Shown: positions 4,534 to 62,944 of the stretch, in pieces
Layout of the letters: every line of letters starts with the position of its first letter
How positions within the stretch are numbered: the stretch's first letter is position 1
Source: Candidatus Thorarchaeota archaeon
GTDB taxonomy: Archaea > Asgardarchaeota > Thorarchaeia > Thorarchaeales > Thorarchaeaceae
Assembly: GCA_050124975.1 (NCBI GenBank)
Contig: JASFEF010000002.1
Location: 22,690-86,689 of the forward strand
Direction: 5' to 3'
DNA: 64,000 nt
Notes under the pieces: generated by a model
The model's input: only the letters and a program-made list of their open reading frames with translations
Told to the model about the DNA's origin: nothing
Databases searched by the model: none
Made by a program: the position numbers and the translations under genes

Positions 4534-4534
4534 C

Positions 4535-5149
4535 TCAAGTCAGCCTCATCACTAGTTTCTTAGATTGTTCTTCGAATTCAGCAAGTGTGCCTTGATTTAC
4601 TAGCATGATATCACTGAGTGCAATTACTCCCCCCAGACCTACTGAGATTTCTCTGACATCACGCTCTCTAAACACCTCCCAACTAGGAGGTGCATCTTCA
4701 CGATTTCGTTCGAGAAGTCGGGTGTATCGTTCTTTTGGAGAAGCATGAACACACACAATGACAACCGAATCAGCATAATCATCAAAAACATCGATTTCAG
4801 CGATGCTTCTACATCCCTCTATGACAACGATAGCAGAATCAGATGCTTTCAGTTCATCCATACAAAACGCTGCAACTGCTCCGGGACCATTCTTCTCTCG
4901 AAGTTCCAACATGACTTTTTTGGTATTCTCTGGGTTTGGTTCTAGACCACGTTTCTGAGTTTCTTCGCGTATCACATCACCCATCACAATAACTGGAATA
5001 CCAGCATCATGAAAAGCTTGAGCTACTCCGCTCTTCCCTGCACCGGGCATACCAGTCACAATCACCAGTTTCATTTTTCCCACCAGAAACCTCTCGCCTT
5101 CGTCTTGTGATTGTCCTTTAAGAATTGCCTTTGAATCAACTAGCGTCAC
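4535..5149 (-). CDS. P-loop nucleotide/nucleoside kinase, UPF0200/CoaE-like
   Basis: The P-loop is MKLVIVTGMPGAGKSGV and the size is about 180 aa. The probable start is the internal Met; the longest ORF is 204 aa. Confidence 0.5.
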   Translation of the reverse strand: MTLVDSKAILKGQSQDEGERFLVGKMKLVIVTGMPGAGKSGVAQAFHDAGIPVIVMGDVIREETQKRGLEPNPENTKKVMLELREKNGPGAVAAFCMDELKASDSAIVVIEGCRSIAEIDVFDDYADSVVIVCVHASPKERYTRLLERNREDAPPSWEVFRERDVREISVGLGGVIALSDIMLVNQGTLAEFEEQSKKLVMRLT

Positions 5150-5768: not shown

Positions 5769-6118
5769 AAAATGATGGTGGGCCGGGGGAGACGTATTCC
5801 GATTGGGGAAGTCCCAAGTCGTTTGAACTCCCGATCTCTTGCATTCTGTGACTTGAGGTGTAGTTCCTCAGTCGCCCCAAGCAAGAATCATACCAAGCTA
5901 GACTACCGACCCATGCTGCATGAGATATTTGATGTACTCATGACTACAGTTGCCGTATTTCGGACTTAAGATAAACATTCCCTATCCCTGGGGTTCTCAT
6001 AGATGTTTGGAACACGTGTTCAAAAAAAATCGAGGATTTTACAGAAAGATTCAGACTTATCAGTATGTTCACAATTCCAATCAATATTGCAATCAGAACA
6101 AGAGATGGCTTTGTAATG

Positions 6119-7165
6119 GTCACCGATTTAGTTTACCACGATATCTTTGTTGAACATGTAATGTCACCAGGACACCCGGAGAATCCAGAACGACTGAGAA
6201 GTGCGATGAGTTCGATAAATGCTTCAGGTCTATTAGATGATCAAAAAGTGAACCTTTTCATCCCAAAGCAAGCTCCCCTAGATAAGGTGCATCTGGTTCA
6301 TGGGGAAGCATACCTTGAAGGGGTCAAAGCAAAATCGGAGAAAGGGGGCGGTTTTTTCACTAGAGATACCTATGTTAATTCACATACATATGATGCTGCG
6401 TTATTTGCCGCGGGTGGAGGAATAGGGGCTGTGGACCGAATTATGCAAGGGGATTCTGAGAATGCCTTTATTTTGTGCAGACCTCCAGGGCATCATGCTG
6501 AGTATGAGAGAGCATTTGGTTTTTGTTTCATCAACAATGTGGCTGTAGCAGCCAAGCATCTTTTACAGAAACAAGATGTTAAACGTGTAATGATAGTGGA
6601 TTATGATGCTCATCATGGAAACGGTACACAGCGTAGTTTCTATTCTTCAAAAGATGTGCTCTACGTGGGACTCCATCAGGATGGAAGAACACTGTTTCCA
6701 GGGTCGGGATTTGCAAATGAAGTTGGAACAGGTGATGGTGAGGGGTACACTGTAAATCTTGCAATGTACCCGGGGGCAGGAGATTCTTCATATGATCGTG
6801 CTTTTTCTCAAGTGATTGAACCCATTGTTGAGTCCTATGATCCCGATTTCATCCTTGTTTCAGTTGGTTATGATGGGCATTTCGTGGATCCTTTGACTCA
6901 GCTTGGACTCACCTCTTCTGGGTTTGCAATGATGAATTCTAGATTGAAACAGTTAGCTATCTCTCATGCAGAAGGAAGGATAGCATGCTTTCTAGAAGGT
7001 GGTTACAATCTTGAAGTCATGGGAATGTGTTCATTGAACCTTCTTCAAGAGCTGGCAGGTACAAGTGTCACGGTATTCGACGATGAATACGAAGAAAGCG
7101 ATATTGCAGGTGAATACACGGATAAGTTGATTGAGAAGATTGTGGCTGATTCACCTCTGTTGTAG
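6119..7165 (+). CDS. histone deacetylase / acetoin-utilisation AcuC family deacetylase
   Basis: The HHGNGTQ motif and the arginase/deacetylase-fold signatures (PPGHHA, DYDAHHGNG) are present. The internal Met is the likely start; the longest ORF starts at 6065. Confidence 0.8.
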   Translation, partial: VTDLVYHDIFVEHVMSPGHPENPERLRSAMSSINASGLLDDQKVNLFIPKQAPLDKVHLVHGEAYLEGVKAKSEKGGGFFTRDTYVNSHTYDAALFAAGGGIGAVDRIMQGDSENAFILCRPPGHHAEYERAFGFCFINNVAVAAKHLLQKQDVKRVMIVDYDAHHGNGTQRSFYSSKDVLYVGLHQDGRTLFPGSGFANEVGTGDGEGYTVNLAMYPGAGDSSYDRAFSQVIEPIVESYDPDFILVSVGYDGHFVDPLTQLGLTSSGFAMMNSRLKQLAISHAEGRIACFLEGGYNLEVMGMCSLNLLQELAGTSVTVFDDEYEESDIAGEYTDKLIEKIVADSPLL

Positions 7166-7168
7166 GGG

Positions 7169-9418
7169 CTATACACCAAAATCTTCCAATAGTGTCTGCA
7201 TCGAGTCAATATCATCATCATCGATTAGAGTATCAGCTTCAGTTGCTGTCAGTTTTATGTCAAAGCCTAGTTGTTTCTTAATTGATTCTGCGATTGCTGT
7301 ACCAATTGTTGGTATTCTTGCTAATTCTTCTAGGGGGACCTTGTGTAAATCTGGTAGATTGACCAAATTATGATTATGAAGCATTCTGCCTCTTACTCGT
7401 CCAACTCCTCTGAGACTTACAAGCTCCAGAATGTCTGAACGTACTCCATAACGAAGACGTGACCTCAAATTATGAAGGAATGGAATGTGACCAGTTGCGT
7501 TGGATATTCTGGAGATCTCTGATGCTGCATATGTCAGCCATTCTGCTGCCTGGACAAATCTGTGGACATCTCCCATTCCAACATTGTATCTCTCTGTGAT
7601 GTCCTTCTCAGTTTTCTCAGCAATCCAGTCTTGAAGTAAGGATGCTGTCTTCATTTGAGCTAAGAATTCTGCATAAGCACGCGGGCTCTCTTCAATAGGC
7701 GGTTCAATCATAAGTTCGTCAAGATAGTCATCCAAAGCAACTTCATATTCTTCAGCTTCCGATCTTGTCACGTATGTGAGTGGTTGGTCTGGGGTATAAC
7801 ATAATAGATGTAGAATCCCCATCATACTGTGACTGTCAGTTCCTGATAAAACATCACGAAACAGGATTGCTGTTTGTGGATCGATGTATAACTGTGAGGT
7901 CCTCCGTCCTAGTAGTGTGGCAGTGTACGAACCATCTGGAGTCGTTTCTATCAGACTACCTTCTTCGAGAAAGCCTAAAGCTGATGAAATATGTTGATTA
8001 ATCTCCCACTGGTCAAATTGGTGAGAGAAAAATGTCGCTGCAATGAGTGAGTCTATCTCTTTGCGGTTTCTTGTCATTTCGACAGCAATAGATGCCAAGA
8101 GATGAGCCCGTACTGCACGCGGAGATGCTAGCTTGGAGGTTATCTCTTCTGGTTCTGAGAGAGTATAGTTGTCAATAAGAAAATCATGTTCTGGCTCTGT
8201 CCTAGCTATTAGAACTGCTTCTCCATAATCATCATATTTCGGTCTACCCGCTCTTCCAGCCATTTGTTTATACTCCAGAACAGGAATAGGGTAGCTTCCG
8301 CGGTCTGGTTCAAAACGTCTGTAATCGCGAATAATCACACGTCTTGAGGGGAGATTAACTCCGGCTGCGAGAGTTGGAGTAGCAACAATCACTTTCAGGA
8401 GATTTTCCTTGAAATAATCTTCAACAAGAGCACGTTCTTGATTATCAAGTCCTGCATGATGAAATGCAGCGCCGTTTGCAATCAATCGTGCTAATGTCTT
8501 GGAAGCTTCAGGTGCTGAGGGAGCTCTTCCAATCTTGGTTGTTCCTTTAGAGAGTCGGCGCATTGCGTCGTCGGATATGTATCGACGGAGAAAAGGCGCA
8601 AGTTTCTTGGCAACTGCAATAGTTGAACGACGACTAGAAACAAAGACAAGAACCTGACCATCTTCATCAAGGGTATCACAGACAACGTCTGCTAGTTCAT
8701 CTTTCCGCGTACGATTGATTCTCCTTGCTGAGTTTTTTCCATCTCTATAGAAGTTGATTTGTCCATCTAAATAGACACCTTCGCTTAAGGGTACAGGTCT
8801 CCAAGTATCTCTCACAAGCTCAGCACCAAGCCACTCAGCAATCTGATTGGCATTCGAGATTGTTGCACTTAGTGCGACTGTTTGAAGATCTTCCACTATT
8901 TGTGTAAGTTTTGCCAATACCATCTCAAGAGTAGGTCCTCTTTTTGAATCATTAATGAGATGGACCTCATCAGCAATTACAATTCCAACATCGTTAATCC
9001 ATTCAGCTTTGTGTCGAACAAGAGAGTCAGCCCGTTCAGTCGTCACGATAACAATATCTGCATCATGCAGACTTCTTCCCGGAGAATCATAGTCACCCAC
9101 TGACATTGCTGTTGTTATTCCCAACGATTCATACTTCTTGAACTCGGAATATTTCTCTCTGGCAAGAGATTTCAGTGGTACAAGATAGAGCGCTTTTCCA
9201 CGTCCATCAAGTATTGTTTTGAGCATGCAGATTTCTGCAACCAGTGTTTTTCCTGAGCTAGTAGGTATTGCTAAAACAAGGTTCTTACCATCAAGAACAC
9301 CTGTTTTGAAAGCGCTAATTTGTGGTGGGAAGAGCTCTGAAATTCCTTGATCTTGAAGGTGTGTGATTATTCTCCTGTTGATATCCAGCTCTTCCAGTCT
9401 AATGTTTCTCCTCTCCAC
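7169..9418 (-). CDS. hel308: Ski2-like DNA helicase Hel308/Hjm
   Basis: 749-aa ORF with Walker A PTSSGKT and a DEVH box (ADEVHLIND), plus the helicase C domain and the Hel308 ratchet/HhH-like C-terminus. Confidence 0.8.
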   Translation of the reverse strand: MERRNIRLEELDINRRIITHLQDQGISELFPPQISAFKTGVLDGKNLVLAIPTSSGKTLVAEICMLKTILDGRGKALYLVPLKSLAREKYSEFKKYESLGITTAMSVGDYDSPGRSLHDADIVIVTTERADSLVRHKAEWINDVGIVIADEVHLINDSKRGPTLEMVLAKLTQIVEDLQTVALSATISNANQIAEWLGAELVRDTWRPVPLSEGVYLDGQINFYRDGKNSARRINRTRKDELADVVCDTLDEDGQVLVFVSSRRSTIAVAKKLAPFLRRYISDDAMRRLSKGTTKIGRAPSAPEASKTLARLIANGAAFHHAGLDNQERALVEDYFKENLLKVIVATPTLAAGVNLPSRRVIIRDYRRFEPDRGSYPIPVLEYKQMAGRAGRPKYDDYGEAVLIARTEPEHDFLIDNYTLSEPEEITSKLASPRAVRAHLLASIAVEMTRNRKEIDSLIAATFFSHQFDQWEINQHISSALGFLEEGSLIETTPDGSYTATLLGRRTSQLYIDPQTAILFRDVLSGTDSHSMMGILHLLCYTPDQPLTYVTRSEAEEYEVALDDYLDELMIEPPIEESPRAYAEFLAQMKTASLLQDWIAEKTEKDITERYNVGMGDVHRFVQAAEWLTYAASEISRISNATGHIPFLHNLRSRLRYGVRSDILELVSLRGVGRVRGRMLHNHNLVNLPDLHKVPLEELARIPTIGTAIAESIKKQLGFDIKLTATEADTLIDDDDIDSMQTLLEDFGV

Positions 9419-9447
9419 AGTGTGCTAGCAACGTAAACCAGCTTGGT

Positions 9448-11532
9448 CTAGCTTTGGGAATGTCTGATTTTACCCTCGCGTGGACTGTACAGTATCCCCT
9501 CAGCCAATAGTTTCTCAATAACTTCTTCAGCGCGTTCACGAGGTAGACCCATTGAAACAGCTCTCTGAATCAGGGCATCTCGGTTTACTGTTGAAGTTCC
9601 TTCAGATTCCATGTCGCGGATAGCTTTGATGATGATATCTGAGGAACTCCGCTGCGATGCACTCATCTTAGAAACAAGACTATCAATGTCGATTTTCCCA
9701 GTTATCCTGTCAAGTGCAACCATACGAAGAGATTCTTCCATGAGTCGGACCGCTGCTTGGGCGTCTTCTTTAGAAACTTTGGATTGTAACGCCATTCGGG
9801 CTCTTGCTTCTGCCAAACGAACAAGTGATTCTAGTTGACGTGCTGTGATTGGAACTGGGGAGGCCCCTCCTTCGGCGCTCTTTCGAAGGTCTACATAGAA
9901 TTTCTCAATCACTTCTGCAGCCTCTGATGATAGTTGTGGAATGACATAGCGATTTGCGTATCCAATGTACTTCTTCAAGAAATCAGGAGCAATTGTTGGT
10001 GTTGCACCTGTACTCTGTATCTTCTTCATTTGGTGCATGTTGAGTATGAATTGTGCAAGTTCACGGTCTCTTGTAGCCTCTGGAACATCAACTAGAATCC
10101 AAATTAGATCAAACCTTGAAAGGATGGTGAACGGTAATCGGATATTATCTTGAACAGAGAGTGATGATTCATAACGACCTAATGATGGATTGGCGGCTGC
10201 AAGGATTGAGGTTCTTGCATTCAGTGTAGCGACAATTCCAGCTTTTGCGATACTGACTGTGTGTTGTTCCATGGCTTCATGTATTGCAGTCCGATCATTG
10301 GGGTCCATCTTATCAAACTCATCTATACATGCTATACCTTGGTCCGACAGAACTAATGCACCGGCTTCCAATGTCATTGCACCGGATTCTGTATCGTGAA
10401 CAACCGCTGCAGTAAGTCCTGCTGCTGTAGTCCCCTTACCAGAAGTATAAAGTCCCCTTGCGGCCAAGCCCGAAACGAATTTGAGAATCTGACTTTTTCC
10501 TGTTCCGGGGTCTCCAATCATTAGTATATTGGATTTCCCTCTAAGACGTGTTCCATCTGGCAGTGTCTTTCCAACACCACCGAATAGAAGGAGTGCAATT
10601 GATTCTTTAATTCGTTCATGACCCTGTATAGATGGAGCAATGGAAGCATGGATTCTTTCGTGAACATATGGGTCCTCAGCCAACTCCTTTATTCGTTTCT
10701 CGTCTTCTTCAGATATCTCAAGCTGTTCATACTCTTTTTCAGCTATCTCAACACCATTTGCTTCAATGAAAATATTGAATGTCGCAAGCTTTCCTCCTCT
10801 TCTGGAGAAATCGGGAGAAGTCTGAAGGGTTCCAGTAACCTTGACTAATTCACCTGGTCTAGATATATCTACAATATCTCCTTCCAAAATGACATCAACA
10901 GAACGAGGCATCTGGCCAGGAGGAAGTTCCTCGGGTGATTCTTGGATTCTTACCTTTTGCCAGTCTTTGAACTGTGATTTCTGAGGAATCAAACGCATGG
11001 GTGTTTTCTTTGTGCACACTGGACACAGGGCGGGTTCGGTATATCTTCCTTCTTCCTGGGGTTGAGGTATTTCTGCTTGACAGATTCTGCAAAGGAACAT
11101 TGCTTGAACCAGAAGTGGTTTGACCACACTGGCTCTCATCATGATTCCACTGATGTGTATCAGCTTTCCAATATGACGAGACCGAAGAGCGCGCAATGCT
11201 ATGTGTTCAGGATAATTTACAAAACGTGTCTTTATGAAACTGATATCAAGACTATTGACATAGTCTGGGTCTTCAACACGAAGTACTGATACCAGAGCAT
11301 TATCAGACATCTCTAGGAACTTCTGAGGGTCTTCAGCTGCTAATGCCATGAACACGTTATCGAAGCTTGTCAAATCCTGAAAATCAACGGTGAGTGAAAT
11401 TTCATCATTAATTGACATTTGTTGGATTCTTGACCAATAAGTCAGAGTTCCCTGTTCATCTTTGTATGTTCTTAGGAACTCCTCGAATCTTTCCTGTTCA
11501 TCATAACTGGACATCTTTCTTAGCCTCGACAA
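9448..11532 (-). CDS. mcm: minichromosome maintenance helicase MCM
   Basis: 694-aa ORF with a zinc finger (CPVCTKK), Walker A GDPGTGKS, Walker B/arginine finger (IDEFDKM...SRFDL) and a C-terminal winged helix. Confidence 0.9.
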   Translation of the reverse strand: MSRLRKMSSYDEQERFEEFLRTYKDEQGTLTYWSRIQQMSINDEISLTVDFQDLTSFDNVFMALAAEDPQKFLEMSDNALVSVLRVEDPDYVNSLDISFIKTRFVNYPEHIALRALRSRHIGKLIHISGIMMRASVVKPLLVQAMFLCRICQAEIPQPQEEGRYTEPALCPVCTKKTPMRLIPQKSQFKDWQKVRIQESPEELPPGQMPRSVDVILEGDIVDISRPGELVKVTGTLQTSPDFSRRGGKLATFNIFIEANGVEIAEKEYEQLEISEEDEKRIKELAEDPYVHERIHASIAPSIQGHERIKESIALLLFGGVGKTLPDGTRLRGKSNILMIGDPGTGKSQILKFVSGLAARGLYTSGKGTTAAGLTAAVVHDTESGAMTLEAGALVLSDQGIACIDEFDKMDPNDRTAIHEAMEQHTVSIAKAGIVATLNARTSILAAANPSLGRYESSLSVQDNIRLPFTILSRFDLIWILVDVPEATRDRELAQFILNMHQMKKIQSTGATPTIAPDFLKKYIGYANRYVIPQLSSEAAEVIEKFYVDLRKSAEGGASPVPITARQLESLVRLAEARARMALQSKVSKEDAQAAVRLMEESLRMVALDRITGKIDIDSLVSKMSASQRSSSDIIIKAIRDMESEGTSTVNRDALIQRAVSMGLPRERAEEVIEKLLAEGILYSPREGKIRHSQS

Positions 11533-11621
11533 TATTCATTATACTAGAATGTTCATTCGTTTGTCAGTATCCGACTCCTTGTTCTTCTTGATTTGTATTT
11601 AAGGGCACTAATACTCATTGC

Positions 11622-12191
11622 TCATTCTGTAATGTTTTGGCGCCATCCAGAGAGTAAATCAATTAGCTCTTCACAGAGCCATCTCTCTTCATAAGCCATC
11701 TGTTTTCTCTTTTCTTGATATGCACCCGATTTGGCAACTCGGAGAATCTTTGATAATCGAGTTTCAACCAAGAAAGGGACCATACGTTGTAGTTTTTCGA
11801 TTTCGTCGTATTTTCTTGGATCTATCGATGTTCTGTCACTCTGTAATCGAAGAACCTTCCTGCTGAGTGCAGTATATAGAAATGGTTGAAATGTCTGCAG
11901 CTTATGTGGTTGTTTTTCTTCTTCACGATAGAGATTCTGAAGTCTTCTAAGTGAATCATATGCATCTTCAGGTACAATGTCTACTATATCATGTTTCAGG
12001 AACCGTTCTATAACCCAATTAGGAAGACTGGCCCGATCTCTCTTCTTGAAAGGACCTAGTTTGTTGCCCCCCACAATTATCTCAGATATTGGTTTAAGAA
12101 ATATACACTCCCGAGATTCGTTAAGGAACATCATCTCAAATCGGTTCATCTCATCTTTAGGTTCACTGCAAAGCTTCATGAAATCCCACAC
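11622..12191 (-). CDS. putative GINS subunit (Gins51-like)
   Basis: 189-aa helical ORF immediately upstream of mcm on the same strand, in the position GINS occupies in many archaeal replisome clusters. The family call is tentative. Confidence 0.3.
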   Translation of the reverse strand: MWDFMKLCSEPKDEMNRFEMMFLNESRECIFLKPISEIIVGGNKLGPFKKRDRASLPNWVIERFLKHDIVDIVPEDAYDSLRRLQNLYREEEKQPHKLQTFQPFLYTALSRKVLRLQSDRTSIDPRKYDEIEKLQRMVPFLVETRLSKILRVAKSGAYQEKRKQMAYEERWLCEELIDLLSGWRQNITE

Positions 12192-12379
12192 ATCTTTTTG
12201 GACTAGCGGAGATAAAGCCCTTGCTCTGTGATAACGAGCCAGAGTGATTAATCCTGTGTTTCATTTTTGAGGTGTAATCGTGTTGCCAGAGAATCTTTTA
12301 AGGGGTCAAGAAAGATGCGTAACAGAATTTGGCAAAAGCGGAAGACTATCACATCTTCAATATTGGATGGGAACTATAA

Positions 12380-13339
12380 ATGGATCTAGACCTGTGGACT
12401 GAGAAATATCGACCTCCAACCTTGGGCGAGATTGTTGGCCAAGAATCGTTGATTGAGAGCCTGAAGAAGTTTGTAGAAACCAAAGCAGTGCCTCACTGTT
12501 TGTTTGCAGGACCACCAGGTACCAGCAAAACCACTGCAGCAATGGCTATGGCTAGAGACCTCTTTGGCGATTCTTTTGAGCGCAATTTTATGGAGCTCAA
12601 TGCTAGTGATGAGAGAGGCATCGATGTTGTAAGGAATCAGATCAAGAACTTTGCCAGGACCATGCCATCGGGTGATGCTCCATTCAAGATACTCGTTCTC
12701 GATGAAGCTGACCATCTTACGGCAGATGCACAACATGCTTTGAGGCGTACTATGGAGTCCTATGCCGCCTCCTGTAGGATGGTGTTGATCTGTAATTATT
12801 CTAGTAGGATTATCCCACCAATTCAGTCTAGATGTGCGATATTTCGTTTCTCACGGCTTAGTAATGATGACATCGCGAGCAGACTCAAGTATATCGCCAA
12901 AAAAGAGGGGATTGGTCTTCTTGCAGGTGGAAATCAGGCGATTCTGTATCTTGTTGAGGGAGATATGAGAGCCGCTATCAACCTTCTACAAGCAGCTTCA
13001 TCTACAGGCCAAAAAGTGACTGACGAGATTGTTTACTCAATTTCAGGTAGAGCGAACCCAGAAGCTGTAAGGAAGATGCTTGATGATGCAAAAGAAGGAA
13101 AATATATTGAATCACTTGATAGCCTTAGGAATCTGATATATCAGCAAGGTGTTTCACCTGTGGATCTAGTGAAACAAATGCATCGAGAGATTGAGGGTCT
13201 CGGTCTTGATAACAAAGAACGGATGAGTATACTAAACCAGACTGCAGAAATAGAATTCCGTGTGGGTGAAGGAGCGAATGGTGAGATTCAACTTTCAGCA
13301 CTTCTGGCACGTTTAGGGTTTGGTAGTGATTCTGAATGA
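12380..13339 (+). CDS. rfcS: replication factor C small subunit
   Basis: Clamp-loader motifs are present: WTEKYRP, FAGPPGTSKTT, DEADHLT and SRC. Confidence 0.9.
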   Translation: MDLDLWTEKYRPPTLGEIVGQESLIESLKKFVETKAVPHCLFAGPPGTSKTTAAMAMARDLFGDSFERNFMELNASDERGIDVVRNQIKNFARTMPSGDAPFKILVLDEADHLTADAQHALRRTMESYAASCRMVLICNYSSRIIPPIQSRCAIFRFSRLSNDDIASRLKYIAKKEGIGLLAGGNQAILYLVEGDMRAAINLLQAASSTGQKVTDEIVYSISGRANPEAVRKMLDDAKEGKYIESLDSLRNLIYQQGVSPVDLVKQMHREIEGLGLDNKERMSILNQTAEIEFRVGEGANGEIQLSALLARLGFGSDSE

Positions 13340-14556
13340 ACGATGATAGTCTTCCTTGGGCAGAGAAACATCGTCCGAAGAAACTAGATGGACTTGTGGG
13401 GAACCCTGAAACAATAAGGACACTAAAAAGTTGGGTTGAGTCTTGGATATCAAGAGTACCAAGTAAAAGGGCTGCTCTTCTAGTTGGGCCACCAGGAACA
13501 GGAAAGACTGCATTGGTAGGGGCGCTGGCAAACGATTTAGACATGGAACTTGTTGAATTCAATTCAAGTGATAAAAGGAACAAAGATAGTATAGAAACGT
13601 TGGTCTGGAGAGCAGCAGCACAACAGACCCTTGATGGTCGACCTAGACTCATCTTGTTGGACGAAGTGGATGGTCTCTCTGGGACAAGTGATAGAGGTGG
13701 TGTTGGGGCCATCCTGAAAGTTATCAAAGATGCAGTACATCCGATTGTAATGACAGCAAATGATCCTAATAGTCCTCGTCTCAAGGACCTGATGAAAGTG
13801 TGTCAAGTCTTCAATTTTGGACTTATCGAGAATGATGATATGGAGATAGTATTGAAACATATCATATCTGAAAACGATGTGGAGGTATCTAGTGAAGCGT
13901 TAGATGAGATTATTGAGGGTTCAGGAGGCGACCTCCGTGCAGCAATTTCCGACTTAGAGTCCCAAGTAAGGAGTGGTCTAGCATCCCTAGTTGTTACACC
14001 AGCTTTCAGGGACTCGAAACGGGGGATTGAGGAAACTCTACGACACCTGTTTGCTTCTGCTGACTCCAAAGTTGCTAGAAGAACATTGTCTGAAACCGAG
14101 CTAAATCATGATTCGTTGATCTTATGGCTTGAGGAGAATCTCCATCTCCATCTTATGACCACTAAGGAATTGGATGAGGGATTTGAACAACTTTCTCGTG
14201 CAGACATGACGCTTGGAAGAATCATGAGAGACCAGAATTGGAAACTTCTTGCATATTTCTACGATTTCTTGTCTATAGGAGTAGCGATGAGTCGGTCTGA
14301 AACACCTTTTCGGCGTGTTAAATATTCACGGCCTACTTGGCCCCTTTTGGTCTGGCAGGGTAGTAGAAAGCGTGACAAACAAGCTGAAGTCTTGACATCT
14401 TTGTCGGTAGTAACAGGAGTTTCAAAGAGAAGAGTGCGGCAAACTCATCTTGACACAATTCGTGAAATTATTAGGATAAATCCTAAGAGTCTGAACGATT
14501 TCGCGATTTGGTTGAATGTTGAAAAGTCATCATTGGCTCAGAAAAGTAGTCGATGA
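13336..14556 (+). CDS. rfcL: replication factor C large subunit
   Basis: WAEKHRPKKL, VGPPGTGKT and LDEVDG motifs are present. The start overlaps the rfcS stop (ATGA), which indicates an operon. Confidence 0.8.
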   Translation: MNDDSLPWAEKHRPKKLDGLVGNPETIRTLKSWVESWISRVPSKRAALLVGPPGTGKTALVGALANDLDMELVEFNSSDKRNKDSIETLVWRAAAQQTLDGRPRLILLDEVDGLSGTSDRGGVGAILKVIKDAVHPIVMTANDPNSPRLKDLMKVCQVFNFGLIENDDMEIVLKHIISENDVEVSSEALDEIIEGSGGDLRAAISDLESQVRSGLASLVVTPAFRDSKRGIEETLRHLFASADSKVARRTLSETELNHDSLILWLEENLHLHLMTTKELDEGFEQLSRADMTLGRIMRDQNWKLLAYFYDFLSIGVAMSRSETPFRRVKYSRPTWPLLVWQGSRKRDKQAEVLTSLSVVTGVSKRRVRQTHLDTIREIIRINPKSLNDFAIWLNVEKSSLAQKSSR

Positions 14557-15360: not shown

Positions 15361-15645
15361 TCATGACTCCCAAAGATTGAACAGGCTTCTTAGTGAACGT
15401 GCTCTGAGATCTTCAATCTTGTAACGATAGATTTTGATTCTTCCAAATTTCTTCTCTTCTATAAGGCCTGAGCTCAGTAACACTTCAAGATGGGATTTTG
15501 TTGAACTATGATTGAGGTCTACTCTTCGACAAAGCTCAGAGATATTTAGCTCATTAGAAGCTGCTAGTTCCTTGAGTATCTTGATTCTGCCTCGTGATGA
15601 AAATATGTCCTCAATAGGAACTTTGGGTGAACTTTCAGCGGTCAT
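15361..15645 (-). CDS. small winged-HTH (ArsR-like) transcriptional regulator
   Basis: 94-aa ORF containing ILKELAASNELNISELCRRVDLNHSSTKSHLEVL. Confidence 0.45.
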   Translation of the reverse strand: MTAESSPKVPIEDIFSSRGRIKILKELAASNELNISELCRRVDLNHSSTKSHLEVLLSSGLIEEKKFGRIKIYRYKIEDLRARSLRSLFNLWES

Positions 15646-16856
15646 CTGTTAGCCTCCTTGGATGTATCGAGTAATCCTGACAGGAATTGCTCCAACATCT
15701 CAGCTGGAACATCCGAGAACCCAATAAGAGTAGTCTGACCTCTCTGACCTGAACCTGATTTCTTTGCATCTATTATACCGTGAGAATGAAGATCTTGGAC
15801 CCACTCCCAAATCTGAGTGTGGGCTCGTGGTTCTTCATAGTATTCCTCACATATTGAGCGATACATTTCTTCAACTTCGCCTATTGTGACATATGCACTA
15901 CGAATCTCCCGAAGCTGTCTTGCTGCTGCTAATAGTAGAAGTTTGTGCTGTGTAGGAAGTGTTACAAAAATCTCCTTTCTAAGCTCAGGATGGGTGTCTG
16001 TTTTTGCACGACGTGCATAATCAGGTATAACTACATCTACTTGGTCACTATCAGCGCCTTTGCCAGCACGCCATAAGAGCTCAATTGCATATCGTGCATC
16101 ACCGTGCTCGGAAGCAATATCACAAATGACTTGGATTGTTTCATCCATGACTGTCTTCTTCTCAAAAGCCATTTCTACACGGTCTTGGAGTATGTCATGA
16201 AGTGCGTCACGTCTATACCTCGAGAATCTGAGAACATTGCGTTGTAGGGTGCTTCGTGTACTAGAGTCTAGAATGTCATCATCAAGAGGGATTTTTCGAC
16301 CAATTCCTATAATTGAGAGACGTTGTGTTGCGTTAAGTCTATCATCCATAAGTCGTGTGAGATCATAAAGAATGTCAGCACCTCTCTGCCTTATGAAATA
16401 GTCCAGCTCATCAAGGATAAGGAGAAGATATCGATCTTCTTCATCGAGAATCTCCACTAGCATTTGTAGTAATTCGTCAGGTGAGTGTCCACGTCTAGGA
16501 AACTTAGGTTTGAATTCTCGTAGTGCTCGAAGAAAAACTAGGTATGCGGTCTTGTTGACACGGCAGTTAATGTGAATACTATGAAGTCTGATATTTCGCC
16601 TTTTTGCAGCTTGAATCATCTGTTCAGAAAACCGTTTTGCTACTGCCGTCTTCCCGGTTCCTACAGGCCCCTCAATGATGAACTTGTGACTTGTTCGACC
16701 TGGTGAACTGATTAGGGTCTTAAAACTTTGAACAAGTGTCCTAATCTCAGATTGTCGATGAGGAAGACTTTCAGGCACATAGTCGATAGATAAGAACTGC
16801 TCTGATTTGAATACACTACGTCTGCTGAGTTCATCTTCAACATAGTCGTGAGGCAT
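15642..16856 (-). CDS. orc1: Orc1/Cdc6 replication initiator
   Basis: 404-aa ORF with AAA+ motifs (GPVGTGKT; DELD) and a C-terminal winged helix. Confidence 0.85.
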   Translation of the reverse strand: MPHDYVEDELSRRSVFKSEQFLSIDYVPESLPHRQSEIRTLVQSFKTLISSPGRTSHKFIIEGPVGTGKTAVAKRFSEQMIQAAKRRNIRLHSIHINCRVNKTAYLVFLRALREFKPKFPRRGHSPDELLQMLVEILDEEDRYLLLILDELDYFIRQRGADILYDLTRLMDDRLNATQRLSIIGIGRKIPLDDDILDSSTRSTLQRNVLRFSRYRRDALHDILQDRVEMAFEKKTVMDETIQVICDIASEHGDARYAIELLWRAGKGADSDQVDVVIPDYARRAKTDTHPELRKEIFVTLPTQHKLLLLAAARQLREIRSAYVTIGEVEEMYRSICEEYYEEPRAHTQIWEWVQDLHSHGIIDAKKSGSGQRGQTTLIGFSDVPAEMLEQFLSGLLDTSKEANR

Positions 16857-36436: not shown

Positions 36437-36596
36437 CAAGTAAAATGCTTTCACAGATTGTTCATATTTACATCAGTTCACACGTTAGTTGTGTGAATGG
36501 CGCCTTTATTGTGAACACTCTGGGAGAAACGGGCTTCTTAATGCCTTAATATCGGAATGGAGGCGTGATATGTTCTATGATACCTGTGAATGGACA

Positions 36597-36623
36597 CACC
36601 CCTTCGTTTCCAGTGGAAACAGG
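36597..36623 (-). promoter_or_regulatory. origin recognition box (ORB)-like element
   Basis: The bottom strand reads TTTCCACTGGAAACGAAGGGGGTGT, a perfect mini-ORB dyad plus G-string. It sits in a 480-bp non-coding region. Confidence 0.5.
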
Positions 36624-36916
36624 AAAGAAGACCTATGAAATGCTTACACACTCATTCACAAGAAGTATAGATTAGTGAATGATGAATTGGCTGGAGAATG
36701 TCGTTCTTTCAACGAAAAAAGGGCTCATATTGCTTTTTTATGGCTAATAGGGTCTGACAGGACGTCAGCACAGTAAAAACGAAGTGGACGAGTCCTATAT
36801 GTGTACAGACACACTATGTAGCTCTTATCTTGGTATAGATAATTCACATACTCACACTTATTTGGAATCTAACTCTAGTTCATTGTGAATAGTCAACAGT
36901 ATCGGAGAGATTATGT

Positions 36917-37546
36917 TTGACAAGCGAAGACAGAACTAACTATGTGTATGAGTTTACATACAGTTCAGCACCAGGTCTTCGTGAAATATTCCAGTGTAAA
37001 TATGTCAGACCAGATGAAGCACTTAACAGGTTTAGAAAGATCCTTGCGCTAACTGAGTCGCCCTTTGATTTCAAAATTATTGTGTCTGATGAAACAATGG
37101 GGGAGGAATCGAGTTTTCAGGTGAAGGGCGGCAGTATTGAGGAGATGTTTGTCAAGTTCAAAGTCTTTCTGGAAACAAGTACAGGATTCATCTTTGAGCC
37201 AGTCAGTGAAGAGGTCACAGAGGTCGGAATCGAGGAAGCCCGTTTTGAGTCGATGAGTAATTACGACAAGATGCAGGTGATAATCTATGCGTCATTCAAA
37301 CATGGGAAATTCTCTTCGCTTGATGTCACCGAAATTTACCAAGACTCCTTCAGTGAGGACCTTCCAAAGAGTACGGCTTCCACATATCTAGCAAGAATGT
37401 GGAACAACGGAAAAGGACACCTAGAACGATATGGAAATCGTTCTGGCTACACATATCGACTCAGAACTGAAATTGCAGAAGTTCAGAAAGAAACTGAGCG
37501 GGCAGAGGAACTTCTAGCTGCAATACAAATGCGAGTCAGGGATTGA
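36917..37546 (+). CDS. hypothetical protein, possible C-terminal winged helix
   Basis: 209-aa ORF with no recognised catalytic motifs. Confidence 0.3.
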   Translation: MTSEDRTNYVYEFTYSSAPGLREIFQCKYVRPDEALNRFRKILALTESPFDFKIIVSDETMGEESSFQVKGGSIEEMFVKFKVFLETSTGFIFEPVSEEVTEVGIEEARFESMSNYDKMQVIIYASFKHGKFSSLDVTEIYQDSFSEDLPKSTASTYLARMWNNGKGHLERYGNRSGYTYRLRTEIAEVQKETERAEELLAAIQMRVRD

Positions 37547-40217: not shown

Positions 40218-40334
40218 TGATTATCCTCCATTTTCAAGCTCAAATTGGGTGTGGTGCTGAGGCCGTGGGCGAAGATACCCCCGCTTTAACTTTTCCCTGT
40301 TGGCCAAGTTTTGTATTACTAGCACTAAAAATCA

Positions 40335-40346
40335 GAACACGTGTTC
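40335..40346. repeat. 12-bp palindrome GAACACGTGTTC, copy 1 of 4
   Basis: Perfect palindrome with an E-box-like CACGTG core. It overlaps the GTG start of ORF 40341. Confidence 0.8.
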
Positions 40347-40658
40347 TTCAATTGGATGGTTCACTTGACATCGTATCTGTATCTTTATGATTGCCAGCAA
40401 GCCCGACGAACTAATGCTAGACGTGTTGCATTCACAAAGGAGCTCTATGGTTATTTCTACTCATGGAGAACAAAATCTGGAATCAAACAAAAAAGAAAAC
40501 CAGGTCTATTGGATGAGTGTCCTGGTGCTGAAGCTGTAGCGGACTCAGCTATTCTTGTGCCTTCTGAACATCGTATTGTGTTTAATGCCCTTTTCAAAAT
40601 GTATGAAGATATTCTCAAGTTAAAGATCTTTGAAGTTGTCCAAGAATTGGAGTGGTAA
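40341..40658 (+). CDS. hypothetical small basic protein
   Basis: 105-aa ORF bracketed by palindrome copies 1 and 2. It may start at the internal ATG at 40356. Confidence 0.25.
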   Translation: MFFNWMVHLTSYLYLYDCQQARRTNARRVAFTKELYGYFYSWRTKSGIKQKRKPGLLDECPGAEAVADSAILVPSEHRIVFNALFKMYEDILKLKIFEVVQELEW

Positions 40659-40668
40659 TTAACACTTC

Positions 40669-40680
40669 GAACACGTGTTC
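40669..40680. repeat. 12-bp palindrome GAACACGTGTTC, copy 2 of 4
   Basis: Perfect palindrome. Confidence 0.8.
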
Positions 40681-40735
40681 TAAATATCATCAAGACACTA
40701 TTACTTGTATTACAATCTGTTCAGTTATGATCCCT

Positions 40736-40788
40736 TTCCATTGGAACTCATTCTAACTATGGTTTCTTCCACTGGAACACGTGTTCCA
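40736..40788. promoter_or_regulatory. pair of mini-ORB-like dyads (TTCCATTGGAA, TTCCACTGGAA), the second fused to palindrome copy 3 (TGGAACACGTGTTCCA, 40773-40788)
   Basis: Read directly from the sequence. Confidence 0.55.
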
Positions 40789-40796
40789 TTAACAAT

Positions 40797-40820
40797 CGAA
40801 CCCCCTTGTTTCCACTAGAG
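40797..40820 (-). promoter_or_regulatory. ORB element (bottom strand CTCTAGTGGAAACAAGGGGGTTCG)
   Basis: It matches the archaeal ORB architecture of a dyad followed by GTGGAAAC and a G-string, and it is inverted relative to the ORB at 40945. Confidence 0.6.
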
Positions 40821-40920
40821 ATTATTAATATGTATCTAATCGTATAAATATCAAAAAATATATATAATCGTTTCAGCAGCCTTCATTTATCTCCATTTTT
40901 AATATATATATTATTACCCG
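40821..40920. promoter_or_regulatory. AT-rich putative DNA unwinding element between inverted ORBs
   Basis: About 100 bp of sequence above 80% AT (…ATATCAAAAAATATATATAATCG…TTTTTAATATATATATTATTA), flanked by inverted ORBs. Confidence 0.55.
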
Positions 40921-40944
40921 CCGAAGGTATTCTCCATAAGATCT

Positions 40945-40964
40945 CTCGAGTGGAAACCAAGGGG
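40945..40964 (+). promoter_or_regulatory. ORB element (CTCGAGTGGAAACCAAGGGG)
   Basis: Near-identical to the reverse complement of the element at 40797-40820. Confidence 0.6.
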
Positions 40965-41011
40965 TCTTATCCAGATACATTTTGACGGATTACCTAGATG
41001 GGGTTAACACA

Positions 41012-41023
41012 ATACTCACTAGA
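41012..41023. repeat. 12-bp palindrome GAACACGTGTTC, copy 4 of 4
   Basis: Perfect palindrome 100 bp upstream of iorA. Confidence 0.8.
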
Positions 41024-41122
41024 ACACGTGTTCCAATAATGAAAATCGTATTGTCCAAGACCACAAAACTGATACAGCACACACAATTCAAACCGAATCA
41101 TCCATACGCGGAGGATCAATGA

Positions 41123-43015
41123 TTGGCAAAGCCCAAGGAACTTCTTGAGGACAAACCAGGGAAGGAGATTCTTCTTCTTGCCAATGAAGCAATTGCTCGA
41201 GGTGTACTGGAAGCAGGTGTCAGACTAGTGGCACTTTATCCTGGTACACCAAGTAGCGAAATTGGAAATAATCTGACGTTCATGGCTCCACACATCCCAA
41301 ACTTCTATTTTGAATTCAGTACAAATGAGAAGGTTGCTCTAGAGGTGGCTGGTGCTGCCGCCGTTGCAGGTGTGAGATCCATGATGGTCTGCAAGGGTCC
41401 GGGTCTCAATGTTGCTGCAGATCCATTTTTCTCACTAACATATGTTGGTGTTCGAGGAGGGATGGTGATTGTCGTAGCTGATGATCCAAGTATGTGGAGC
41501 TCACAAAATGAGAATGATAGTCGATACTATGCCCTAATGGGAAACATGCCATTGATGGAACCCTCTGATCCCATTGAAGCAAAATCAATGTTGCTTGAGG
41601 CCTACAAGTTCTCAGAAAAACTAGAACTTCCAGTACTCTTCCGTACAACTACCAGGGTAAACCATACACGAGCACCTGTTAAGTTCGGGAAGATTCCTTC
41701 ACGCCCAGATAAGATTGAGTTTGAAAAGGAACCATTCCGTTTTGTTCCTGTTCCATCTGTCGCACGCAAAAGACATCCTTGGCTTCTTGAACAGATAGAC
41801 AAAGCACGCAAATTATCAGAGAAAAGCCCTCTGAACTTTGTCGAGGGTGAAGGTGATCTTGGAATAATCACTTCGGGTGTTTCCTACAACTATGTGATTG
41901 AAGCATTATCAATCATGGAAATTGACGCTGAGGTCCTGAAGCTTGGAATCACTCATCCAATTCCTGAGAAAATGATCACCGAATTTCTACGTCGTCACAA
42001 ACAAGTATTGATTGTTGAAGAGCTAGAACCGTTTCTCGAAACACATGCAAGGCGGTTGGCTCATCTGAACAATGTTACCGTAGAAGTCCTTGGAAAGGAA
42101 CAAGGAATCTTTTCTCGTGTCTATGAGTACAGTCCAAGGATTGTCATGGAAGCATTGAAGAAAGTTACTACACGTAATACACCTATTAACTGGGATGAGA
42201 TTGAGAAAAAGACCCGAAAATTGCCTGAGTTACCTCCAAGACCTCCACTTCTTTGTGCGGGGTGTCCTCATAGAGCAACTTACTATGCGATTCGGGCAGC
42301 GACTAGAGGGAAAGCAATCTACCCTTCCGACATTGGTTGCTATACTCTAAGCATTGCACCTCCACTAGAAACGGCTGACATATTGTTCGATATGGGATCA
42401 TCAATAACCACTGCATGTGGTCTTGCAGAAGTCACTGACCAAGATGTTGTTGCATCAATTGGGGACAGTACATTCTTTGCATCTGGTCTTCCAGGCATTG
42501 CGAATGCAGTCTACAATCAACACAGAATTTGCGTAGTAGTTCTAGACAATCGAACAACAGCAATGACTGGCCATCAGCCGCATCCTGGTACTGGAATAAC
42601 TGGTATGCAAAAGGAAGTCCCGCCTCTAGATATAGCAGAAGCATGCAAGGGTCTGGGTGTCAAATACGTCAAGACTGTTGAACCATTTGAATCAATGGCA
42701 GGCCTAGTTGCTGAAGTTCGTGAGATGGTCAAATGGACGAGGGAGAATCACAGTCCTGCAGTACTAGTTTCAATAGAACCATGTGCACTTCTCACTGCTG
42801 CTGATCGTAGACGTACTGGCAAGTTCCCACCCAAATACTATGTCGATTCAAAGATTTGTAATGCATGCAAACGTTGTTTCAATCGGCTTTCCTGTCCTGC
42901 AATGTATATGGACTCAGAAACAGAACAAGCTGTGATTGATGAAACTCTGTGCAACCTCTGCGGAACTTGTGTTTCAGTTTGTCCACAGGGTGCAATAAAG
43001 CAGGAGGATACATAA
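41123..43015 (+). CDS. iorA: indolepyruvate:ferredoxin oxidoreductase alpha subunit
   Basis: 630-aa ORF with TPP-binding domains and two C-terminal 4Fe-4S motifs (CNACKRC...CP and CNLCGTCVSVCP). Confidence 0.8.
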   Translation: MAKPKELLEDKPGKEILLLANEAIARGVLEAGVRLVALYPGTPSSEIGNNLTFMAPHIPNFYFEFSTNEKVALEVAGAAAVAGVRSMMVCKGPGLNVAADPFFSLTYVGVRGGMVIVVADDPSMWSSQNENDSRYYALMGNMPLMEPSDPIEAKSMLLEAYKFSEKLELPVLFRTTTRVNHTRAPVKFGKIPSRPDKIEFEKEPFRFVPVPSVARKRHPWLLEQIDKARKLSEKSPLNFVEGEGDLGIITSGVSYNYVIEALSIMEIDAEVLKLGITHPIPEKMITEFLRRHKQVLIVEELEPFLETHARRLAHLNNVTVEVLGKEQGIFSRVYEYSPRIVMEALKKVTTRNTPINWDEIEKKTRKLPELPPRPPLLCAGCPHRATYYAIRAATRGKAIYPSDIGCYTLSIAPPLETADILFDMGSSITTACGLAEVTDQDVVASIGDSTFFASGLPGIANAVYNQHRICVVVLDNRTTAMTGHQPHPGTGITGMQKEVPPLDIAEACKGLGVKYVKTVEPFESMAGLVAEVREMVKWTRENHSPAVLVSIEPCALLTAADRRRTGKFPPKYYVDSKICNACKRCFNRLSCPAMYMDSETEQAVIDETLCNLCGTCVSVCPQGAIKQEDT

Positions 43016-58445: not shown

Positions 58446-58555
58446 GGGCCGCTAGTCTAGCCCGGCTATGATGTCTCGCTTACACCGAGAACTTTGTTGA
58501 GCTTCGTGCTCGACAAAATCGAAGGTCGCTGGTTCAAATCCGGCGCGGCCCACCA
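58446..58555 (+). tRNA. tRNA-Val (anticodon TAC) with a ~32-nt intervening sequence in the variable-loop region (non-canonical), CCA encoded
   Basis: The fold is GGGCCGC-TA-GTCT/AGCCCGGCTA/TGAT-G-TCTCG/CTTACAC/CGAGA-A[~58492-58522]AGGTC-GCTGG/TTCAAAT/CCGGC-GCGGCCC-A-CCA. Confidence 0.6.
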
Positions 58556-58659: not shown

Positions 58660-58781
58660 GCGGGAGTAGCCAAGCCAGGTCAAAGGCGGTGGACTTAAGA
58701 TCGCACAAAGACATGGGGTCAAGTGGATAAGATATCCACTCTCGTAGGAGTTCGTGGGTTCGAACCCCACCTCCCGCACCA
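58660..58781 (+). tRNA. tRNA-Leu (anticodon TAA) with canonical 37/38 intron (~34 nt, ~58700-58733), CCA encoded
   Basis: Acceptor GCGGGAG, D-arm GCC/AAGCCAGGTCAAA/GGC, anticodon arm GTGGA/CTTAAGA/[intron]/TCCAC, a long variable arm CTCGTAGGAGTTCG, and T-arm TGGGTTCGAACCCCA. Confidence 0.8.
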
Positions 58782-62803: not shown

Positions 62804-62944
62804 GCCGCGGTGGCCTAGCCTGGTTAGGGCGCGAGACTCATAATCTGGCCGGGAAACCGGTTGACAACGGGGTCATTAGATTAGATGAGCGTCGAGAGAT
62901 GAGATATCTCGAAGTCGAGGGCTCGAATCCCTCCCGCGGCACCA
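62804..62944 (+). tRNA. tRNA-Met or tRNA-Ile2 (anticodon CAT) with ~63-nt canonical intron (~62843-62905), CCA encoded
   Basis: Acceptor GCCGCGG, anticodon arm CGAGA/CTCATAA/[intron]/TCTCG, variable loop AAGTC, T-arm GAGGG/CTCGAAT/CCCTC, then CCGCGGC-A-CCA. The G1:C72 pair argues against initiator tRNA. Confidence 0.75.

Follow-up and report, generated by a model that had tools for sequence, protein, structure and literature searches.

A probable oriC1-type replication origin, distant from the initiator genes, in the chromosome of Thorarchaeota

Where does the replication of the chromosome start in the Thorarchaeota, and can an archaeal origin stand apart from the gene of its initiator? These questions are raised by an intergenic locus of a Candidatus Thorarchaeota archaeon (contig JASFEF010000002.1), from which a stretch of 64,000 nucleotides, hereafter called the window, was analysed. 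A first examination of the letters alone (the sequence-only reading) had pointed out, away from the orc1/cdc6 gene, a module made of two inverted origin recognition boxes (ORBs) and, between them, a putative duplex-unwinding element (DUE); it had offered three options, an orc1-distal origin, a secondary origin or the remnant of an integrated replicon. The module occupies the intergenic region (within 40300-41130) between a small gene of the top strand (40356-40658) and iorA (41123-43015), and our analysis favours the first option: the module is very probably a genuine, conserved oriC1-type chromosomal replication origin of the Thorarchaeota, and not a captured replicon. This reading is drawn from the conservation of the module, the rarity of the ORB elsewhere, a strand-independent switch of the nucleotide skew, and a part-for-part match with the Orc1-1-adjacent origin of a related locus, designated L260. 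The anatomy, the conservation, the scarcity of the ORB outside the locus, the switch of the skew and the order of the parts are read from sequences, and the binding of Orc1, the loading of MCM and the firing of the origin are inferred from them.

The two boxes of the pair, ORB-B and ORB-C (Table 1), are indeed near-identical and inverted, as had been claimed; they are imperfect inverted copies, 86% complementary, and form with the intervening spacer a unit of 166 bp. Written with the G-run in 3', their dyads read TCTAGTGGAAA or TCGAGTGGAAA and are followed by AAGGGGG or CAAGGGG, and, judged by its sequence, each of them is an archaeal origin recognition box composed of a mini-ORB core and a G-string (PMC1904270, PMC1868953). 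The succession of a TTCCAGTGGAAA dyad and a G-string agrees with the Pyrococcus mini-ORB TTCCAGTGGAACT, with its conserved TTCC and GAA cores and with the G-string reported from other archaea (PMC1904270, PMC1868953). The a priori pattern GTGGAAACNAAGGGG, with two mismatches at most, finds four matches in the window for 0.34 expected, a number that none of 100 shuffles reaches, and three of the four are ORBs (36599, 40801 and 40950). A stricter regular expression of 22 nt, which was derived from the observed sites themselves, occurs three times for 0.0013 expected per 64 kb. The third of these boxes, ORB-A, reads TTTCCACTGGAAACGAAGGGGT on the bottom strand, is even more canonical than the pair and lies in a 480-bp intergenic region; like the palindromes described below, it belongs to the locus and had escaped the sequence-only reading.

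The announced stretch of more than 80% AT between the boxes is also real, since the AT content of the spacer amounts to 74.6% over its 122 nt and to 81.0% over the best 100 nt. The spacer ranks first in AT among all the windows of 60, 80, 100 and 120 nt of the 64 kb (mean 57.6%, standard deviation 4.4). It contains a central motif, TTATCTCCATTTT, found mainly in Thorarchaeota modules among the loci fetched, together with a second TCTCCAT at 40931-40937 and a conserved TATA-like AAGTATAAATA. The two TTCCAnTGGAA dyads that had been noted upstream of the pair do exist, and both are exact in near-identical contigs, but they are not a general property of the module: the first is carried by an insertion of ~34 nt (40722-40756) found only in this lineage and in near-identical relatives (L001, L002 and L004), and the second, which overlaps the palindrome PAL3, is degenerate in the other lineages.

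The conservation of this anatomy was followed in the window and in seven progressively more distant Thorarchaeota loci scanned in full, in which the product of the small gene (the small protein) is 63-84% identical. The three ORBs stand at equivalent positions in all of these long loci (8/8), with the consensus nTTCYAnTGGAAAYnrrGGGGT, and the spacer, 119-123 nt long across the 8 lineages, stays AT-rich and keeps the central motif TTTATCTCCATTTTTA. The loci have in common the gene order aminotransferase, 334-aa protein, gap of ~480 bp, 209-aa protein (p209), saccharopine dehydrogenase, AlaDH-like gene, small gene, gap of ~400 bp, iorA, iorB and hypF, and the ORB pair is present in 20 further Thorarchaeota metagenome contigs collinear with the window locus. 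The search for the ORB consensus in other genomes of the lineage, which the sequence-only reading had suggested, thus finds it at this locus (8 long and 20 metagenome loci) and not beside orc1. Indeed, the 854,121 nt that surround the window-type orc1 in 44 Thorarchaeota-type assemblies give no match to the strict ORB pattern and one to the loose pattern, and in this DNA the motif is therefore neither placed beside this orc1 nor dispersed; it was dispersal over many non-origin sites that the sequence-only reading had regarded as fatal to its own proposal.

A search of metagenomes at large for two inverted ORBs separated by 125-150 nt gave more than 120 loci, among them the 20 collinear ones; in 97% of the loci scanned, the AT content of the spacer exceeds that of the surrounding locus. 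In nine others of these loci, an orc1 homologue is found 176-599 nt from the inverted pair, the G-strings being distal and the spacer measuring ~120-135 nt. The orientation of the ORBs relative to the DUE, which the review texts do not state, was taken from these nine pairs: their dyads are proximal and their G-strings distal, and the Thorarchaeota geometry is thus that of initiator-adjacent origins. Conversely, at least 14 ORB pairs from outside the Thorarchaeota have no orc1 within 4 kb or more, which makes the adjacency of the initiator typical and not universal. Fourteen loci of this kind (L149, L151, L160, L166, L177, L199, L213 and others), mostly from marine metagenomes, carry modules of 174-178 nt with no orc1 within 4-8 kb on either side, and it may be frequent, in another lineage of archaea, for an origin to have no initiator gene beside it; in L160, the pair is flanked by genes of a GGGP synthase and of a beta-CASP nuclease.

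A counterpart of the locus, L260 (33% GC), was found through a homologue of p209. It presents, contiguously, PGM, PolD-DP1, Orc1, a first intergenic region, the p209 homologue, the small-protein homologue, a second intergenic region, iorA and iorB. Its Orc1 matches Sulfolobus Orc1-1 with an E value of 1.7e-112 and Aeropyrum ORC1 with 6e-111. The first intergenic region, between Orc1 and the p209 homologue, contains one ORB and eight TTCACA/TGTGAA boxes, and the second, 5' of iorA, contains GAACATATGTTC, a degenerate ORB, an AT-rich spacer, an ORB and again GAACATATGTTC; the small-protein homologue (4526-4819) is 40% identical (E 5e-26) and holds the same relative position. The Thorarchaeota locus differs in two respects: two metabolic genes stand between those of p209 and of the small protein, and the initiator genes are remote. 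Because the parts match in the same order, the Thorarchaeota locus would correspond to an Orc1-1-adjacent origin of the oriC1 type whose initiator gene was subsequently parted from it. Its history, as suggested by this comparison, would start from a compact ancestor in which PolD-DP1 and orc1-1 adjoined the origin, and the initiator genes would then have moved 24 kb (paralogue) and 65-76 kb (Orc1-1) away.

The same remoteness would suit an origin captured from a plasmid or a virus, retained as a secondary origin or as a remnant, and the multiple origins of archaea are thought to arise by the capture of extrachromosomal elements (PMC4010727). The gene order is, however, identical in all the Thorarchaeota lineages sampled, PHROGs gives no match for the small, 209-aa and 334-aa proteins, no integrase appears among the flanking genes scanned with Pfam, and the 79 matches to the ORB pattern in viral contigs are all single, none of them being paired. 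Moreover, the identity to the Orc1 proteins of plasmids stays below 30%, the ORBs belong to the oriC1 type, which is universally conserved, and the L260 counterpart is flanked by DP1 and Orc1-1. On these grounds a capture appears extremely unlikely, and the remnant of an integrated replicon evoked by the sequence-only reading is not sustained.

Which initiator would then read the boxes? The orc1 gene of the window, confirmed at 24 kb from the module as had been stated, encodes a true Orc1/Cdc6 protein (NCBIfam NF001623, score 355.8 for a cut-off of 311), but it is not the orthologue of Orc1-1, which sits 65-76 kb away. Its best match in the PDB is Pyrobaculum Cdc6 1FNN (8e-57), Sulfolobus Orc1-1 coming at only 2e-46; it is 31% identical to the Orc1-1 of L260 and 29% to the Thorarchaeota Orc1-1 orthologue P0425, and such identities of 29-31% to Orc1-1 proteins designate it as a paralogue. 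The exact sequence of this protein is not on record. The distance of ~23 kb between paralogue and module is kept in a lineage represented by L012 and L038, which come from one and the same contig; its Orc1 paralogue shares 78% identity with that of the window. The Orc1-1 orthologues of the Thorarchaeota, 415 aa in length, are 61-65% identical to that of L260; in two relatives the gene shares a contig with the module, at distances of 64.8 kb and 75.5 kb, with DP1, PGM, PCNA, primase and GINS51 as neighbours; it lies outside this window. In these two lineages the 6 kb on either side of the Orc1-1 orthologue contain no ORB and no palindrome. Similarly, no ORB was found near the window orc1, in agreement with the absence of a dyad reported there, and none by the strict pattern within 10 kb of the window-type paralogue in the 44 assemblies. 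The genes of MCM, GINS, both RFC subunits (small and large), Hel308 and the Orc1 paralogue are gathered 24-33 kb to the left of the module. In L265 (5783-6000), the promoter region of the Orc1-1 orthologue displays several GTTCCA half-sites and one TCCATTGGAAC dyad without G-string, and this dyad may be a mini-ORB-like site for autoregulation.

The third line of evidence is the nucleotide skew. We considered the GC skew at third codon positions and referred it to the top strand, so that the orientation of the genes has no influence. All of the 18 genes between 12 and 40.7 kb have a positive value (10 on the top and 8 on the bottom strand; pooled value +0.225), versus only 3 of the 19 genes that lie beyond 41.1 kb on the right (pooled value -0.062; Fisher p = 9e-8). 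When a single change-point is placed at each of the 48 gene boundaries, the best score is obtained for the 40658-41123 gap, i.e. the ORB intergenic region (chi-square 79.4), and the neighbouring boundaries score nearly as high (77.9 and 77.3). The AT skew at third positions flips too; to the left of the site G exceeds C and T exceeds A, and to its right the opposite holds. In seven relatives the same change of sign is observed, with 29 of 35 gene values positive on the left and 16 of 21 negative on the right, and 35 further lineages were compared for the raw skew to the left of the module: outside the orc1 gene itself, 91-100% of them show a positive value. The skew inflection that the sequence-only reading had proposed to look for is thus found at the module, in the window as in the seven relatives.

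Several points weigh against an origin at this place. The site is a maximum of the cumulative GC skew, which in bacteria is the polarity of a terminus, so that an origin located here calls for a polarity inverted as in the haloarchaea (PMC1868953). The two sides are unequal in skew (+0.225 to the left, -0.062 to the right), and the skew is weak to the left of 12 kb (+0.048), where an old rearrangement boundary, or a skew that is not uniform along the replichore, may be responsible. Furthermore, the module does not adjoin an initiator gene and breaks the usual pairing of replicator and initiator (PMC4010727), and either Orc1, the paralogue or the Orc1-1 orthologue, may be the reader of the ORBs. 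Finally, what was covered is ~64 kb and fragments of any one genome, and more ORB clusters or origins may lie elsewhere. Measured against the known oriC1-type origins, the locus has the ORB consensus, the inverted pair around an AT-rich element, an Orc1-1-class initiator encoded by the lineage and the skew switch, and it departs from them by the adjacency of the initiator.

The polarity of the skew brings in a second alternative, in which the site would be a replication terminus or a zone of fork convergence and the ORB-like repeats would have another purpose. A cumulative maximum fits the bacterial type of terminus, and the studies on Asgard archaea, which have proposed origins only from cumulative GC skew with the bacterial polarity, in a few closed genomes, use iRep gc_skew.py and place the putative origin of Odinarchaeum at the cumulative minimum (PMC9246712, PMC11291895). 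This alternative is nevertheless very unlikely in our opinion. A terminus has no known need for canonical inverted ORBs around an AT-rich spacer, the L260 counterpart and nine other loci directly adjoin orc1, and the genes of MCM, GINS, RFC and Orc1 are clustered beside the site. The haloarchaeal origins show that an inverted polarity is possible (PMC1868953), and 4 of the 5 tRNA genes and 66% of the coding bases on the right are directed away from the site.

The module is, in addition, bounded by copies of a palindrome, GAACACGTGTTC, of which the window contains five exact copies for 0.09 expected: four within the module region (PAL1 to PAL4) and a fifth upstream of a gene of the histone deacetylase family, where it is kept in 28 of 44 related loci. 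The first and the last palindromes of the module (40335 and 41022) coincide with the limits that the sequence-only reading had given to it. In the sequences scanned, namely the window, the loci of the module and the 854 kb that flank the orc1 paralogue, the palindrome is restricted to the surroundings of the origin cassette and to the upstream region of the deacetylase gene, and it is absent near all of the 65 non-Thorarchaeota ORB pairs (65/65). PAL3 and PAL4 delimit a cassette of ~260 bp (palindrome, 13 nt, ORB-B, spacer, ORB-C, 56 nt, palindrome) which, in 5 of 21 Thorarchaeota loci forming one clade (L009 at 6309-6586, L142, L159, L192 and L194), is flipped with respect to the neighbouring small gene and iorA, with breakpoints inside the palindromes. 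The module would thus work either way round, like a bidirectional origin and unlike a directional promoter. The inversion in this clade also led us to reject the spacer as the promoter or the 5' leader of iorA.

Could the whole module nevertheless be a set of ordinary transcription-factor operators in the promoter region of iorAB and of the small gene, with no role in replication? The palindromes have promoter-like positions before the small gene, iorA and the deacetylase gene (Table 1), and the TATA-like element of the spacer is conserved. The ORB, however, is a specific recognition motif of Orc1-1, more than a palindrome, the inversion of the cassette would break a directional iorA promoter, and operators explain neither the skew switch nor the adjacency of orc1 in other loci; this explanation thus seems scarcely probable. 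It is, on the other hand, conceivable that the ORBs genuinely bind Orc1 and yet constitute a dormant origin, or a regulatory site for p209, the small gene and iorAB, replication starting elsewhere. The initiator genes are detached from the locus, ORB-A lies in the promoter region of p209 in several lineages, Orc1 paralogues are reported to act as transcription regulators in Sulfolobus, and in Thermococcus kodakarensis replication reportedly needs neither Cdc6 nor the origin (PMC5663688). A dormant or purely regulatory role would leave aside a strand-independent skew switch that falls exactly here and is kept across lineages; the fixed length and the extreme AT content of the spacer suit an unwinding element and not an operator, and the cassette tolerates inversion. 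We consider such a role unlikely, and retain a chromosomal origin as the reading of the module.

The palindrome itself has a known look-alike. It is identical to LexA SOS boxes of the Firmicutes type (GAAC-N4-GTTC) in S. aureus, namely CGAACACGTGTTCT (umuC) and CGAACATGTGTTCT (yolD) (PMC11442139), and the context of PAL2 (40668-40681) reads exactly CGAACACGTGTTCT. The likeness is one of sequence only, and the palindromes here bound the origin cassette and precede the deacetylase gene. To our knowledge, a LexA homologue is not expected in archaea (no search aimed at LexA was made). In a literature search on the 12-mer, nothing came up but these S. aureus boxes and two papers on other subjects.

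Table 1. Positions in the window of the origin module, of its accessory elements and of the replication genes.
Feature	Position	Strand	Remarks
ORB-B	40800..40821	-	22 nt, ACCCCCTTGTTTCCACTAGAGA; dyad toward the AT-rich spacer, G-string distal
ORB-C	40944..40965	+	22 nt, TCTCGAGTGGAAACCAAGGGGT; inverted relative to ORB-B
AT-rich spacer, putative DUE	40822..40943		122 nt between ORB-B and ORB-C
Central spacer motif	40887..40899	+	TTATCTCCATTTT; conserved in alignments, one exact copy in the window
ORB-A, third ORB	36598..36619	-	fully canonical, GTTTCCACTGGAAACGAAGGGG-type; 4.2 kb left of the pair
Two mini-ORB-like dyads	40736..40777		TTCCATTGGAA at 40736-40746 and TTCCACTGGAA at 40767-40777
PAL1	40335..40346		GAACACGTGTTC; 9 nt 5' of the small gene ATG
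PAL2	40669..40680		GAACACGTGTTC; just 3' of the small gene stop, invariant in 5 aligned lineages
PAL3	40775..40786		GAACACGTGTTC; 13 nt left of ORB-B, left end of the invertible cassette
PAL4	41022..41033		GAACACGTGTTC; 56 nt right of ORB-C, ~90 nt 5' of iorA, right end of the cassette
Fifth palindrome copy	6010..6021		43 nt 5' of the histone-deacetylase-family gene (6065-7165)
Small conserved protein	40356..40658	+	100 aa; predicted ferredoxin-like fold, weakly Cas2-like; beside the ORB pair
Conserved non-coding region	36437..36916		480 bp; ORB-A and 8 TTCACA/TGTGAA boxes, 5' of the winged-helix gene
p209	36917..37546	+	209 aa; small N-terminal domain, C-terminal domain resembling a winged helix-turn-helix (wHTH)
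Orc1/Cdc6 paralogue	15642..16856	-	Pfam and NCBIfam matches; not the Orc1-1 orthologue
Replication gene cluster	7169..14556
Hel308-like helicase	7169..9418	-	in the cluster
MCM	9448..11532	-	in the cluster
GINS	11622..12191	-	in the cluster
RFC small subunit	12380..13339	+	in the cluster
RFC large subunit	13336..14556	+	in the cluster

The working of the origin which we propose is modelled on oriC1 of Sulfolobus. By analogy, one Orc1 monomer would bind ORB-B and another ORB-C, with opposite polarities, each placing its winged-helix domain on the dyad next to the spacer and its AAA+ domain on the distal G-string. The 122-nt AT-rich spacer would be the site of MCM loading and of the first opening of the duplex, from which replication would proceed in both directions, and ORB-A, in the promoter region of the winged-helix gene, would offer an additional site to Orc1.

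The module has several features in common with Sulfolobus/Saccharolobus oriC1: in both cases there are three ORBs, two of which are inverted around an AT-rich DUE with a short conserved motif in the middle of the spacer (PMC12141716), and the lineage encodes an Orc1-1-class initiator. The Sulfolobus ORB3-DUE-ORB2 unit, which is genetically required for the activity of oriC1, measures 130 bp (PMC12141716) versus 166 bp in the Thorarchaeota; the third ORB is in the same intergenic region in the former and 4.2 kb off in the latter, and orc1-1, which is adjacent there, is 65-76 kb off here. The mid-spacer motif of the Sulfolobales, the ucm ATTATACAAAC with its binding protein UBP, also differs from the Thorarchaeota central motif TTATCTCCATTTT, and no ucm occurs in the spacer sequences of the window and its relatives. 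As to the flanking palindromes, the descriptions of Sulfolobus oriC1 that we consulted do not mention them.

With the oriC of Pyrococcus and the Thermococcales, the Thorarchaeota module shares a dyad almost identical to the mini-ORB TTCCAGTGGAA, and an inverted ORB pair accompanied by a satellite ORB a few kb off, which in Pyrococcus also binds Cdc6 (PMC1904270). The Pyrococcus origin is linked to cdc6 and to dp1, the gene of the small subunit of PolD (PMC1904270), as is L260, whereas in the Thorarchaeota dp1 and orc1-1 are separated from the ORBs. The polarity of the skew is of the bacterial type in Pyrococcus, as stated for thermophilic archaea (PMC1868953), and opposite in the Thorarchaeota. 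In this last respect the module resembles oriC1 of the haloarchaea Haloferax and Haloarcula, where ORBs and G-strings surround a DUE and the GC skew has an extreme of inverted polarity, the leading strand being C-rich (PMC1868953). The validated autonomously replicating sequence of the haloarchaeal pHV3 likewise has repeats flanking the inversion point with distal G-strings; its ORBs are of a divergent family, and their polarity is for this reason only suggestive. The haloarchaeal origins differ by a halophile-specific extended G-string and by their position directly beside their own cdc6.

In the full-text literature on archaeal and Asgard origins, we found no sequence-defined or mapped origin, and no ORBs described, for any Asgard archaeon. 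The locus documents an oriC1-type origin separated from its initiator genes, while the related L260 keeps the same parts contiguous. It also gives an anchor to the coverage-based (peak-to-trough) estimates of growth, which for the uncultured Thorarchaeota need the position of the origin. The rule that the origin is the skew minimum may be inverted in the Thorarchaeota group. If the leading strand is truly C-rich, would the origins placed at cumulative GC-skew minima in published Asgard genomes not be termini?

The conserved elements that accompany the ORBs deserve attention in their own right. The small protein has 138 homologues, from Thorarchaeota-type metagenome-assembled genomes; the 120 that are listed with a source all bear the name Thorarchaeota or 'Promethearchaeota', and the eight homologues looked up all show the Thorarchaeota gene order. 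These sources mark the window as Asgard DNA, and the tRNA genes with presumed introns agree with an archaeal provenance. It adjoins the ORB pair in every examined module locus of sufficient length, and in L260. Its AlphaFold2 model has a mean predicted local distance difference test (pLDDT) score of 91.5, but Foldseek finds no significant PDB match, the best matches to Cas2 having a TM-score (a measure of structural similarity) of 0.42-0.50 with E > 0.1, and the protein has no Pfam or NCBIfam match.

The second accessory ensemble is that of ORB-A. The TTCACA/TGTGAA boxes reach 16.7 per kb in the 480-bp region (36437-36916) versus 0.81 per kb over the remainder of the 64 kb, and, across the loci, 7-8 boxes are found in this intergenic region (14-17 per kb versus 0.5-1.5 per kb elsewhere). 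The association of the boxes with a third ORB and a p209 homologue recurs in L260 (3516-4483) and in L174 (1033-1700). The best 120 homologues of p209 are 83-100% identical and come almost all from Thorarchaeota-type assemblies; clustered at 50% identity, the family falls into 99 groups. Outside the Thorarchaeota, in five lineages at least, p209 homologues lie 0.3-1.7 kb from ORB pairs, twice directly opposite orc1. p209 has no Pfam match even at E <= 5 and a weak CopY match in NCBIfam, and its distant homologues have only sub-threshold matches to wHTH families, so that no Penicillinase_R or HTH_45 domain of the BlaI/CopY-type winged-helix repressors exceeds the curated Pfam threshold; the AlphaFold2 model has a mean pLDDT of 54.7 for the whole protein, the winged-helix half being poorly modelled. 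The likeness of the N-terminal half to PCNA was rejected (phmmer E 0.19, not significant). The most economical reading of these sequences is that p209 would bind the TTCACA boxes; it may act at the origin or regulate its own gene only, and is a candidate origin-associated factor.

It is possible, and we advance it only tentatively, that in the Thorarchaeota and in at least one related Asgard-like lineage the origin is a multi-part locus with a C-rich leading strand, in which an invertible cassette bounded by palindromes, p209 and the TTCACA boxes beside the third ORB, and the Cas2-like protein would be unrecognised accessory factors. No published description of such conserved extra elements at an origin was found. 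The detachment from the initiator genes, the inverted polarity of the skew and the conserved accessory elements are the three features of this origin of known type that are worth testing.

Two minor observations concern the RNAs of the window. In the ORB-A intergenic region, a C/D-box small RNA was considered and rejected, its boxes not being kept in the alignment of that region, and Rfam gives no RNA family in either intergenic region (whole window at the gathering threshold, 36.3-41.2 kb at an E-value threshold). Elsewhere in the window, Rfam found three tRNA genes of 107-138 nt (58446-58552, 58660-58778 and 62804-62941) which ARAGORN had missed and which presumably bear introns.

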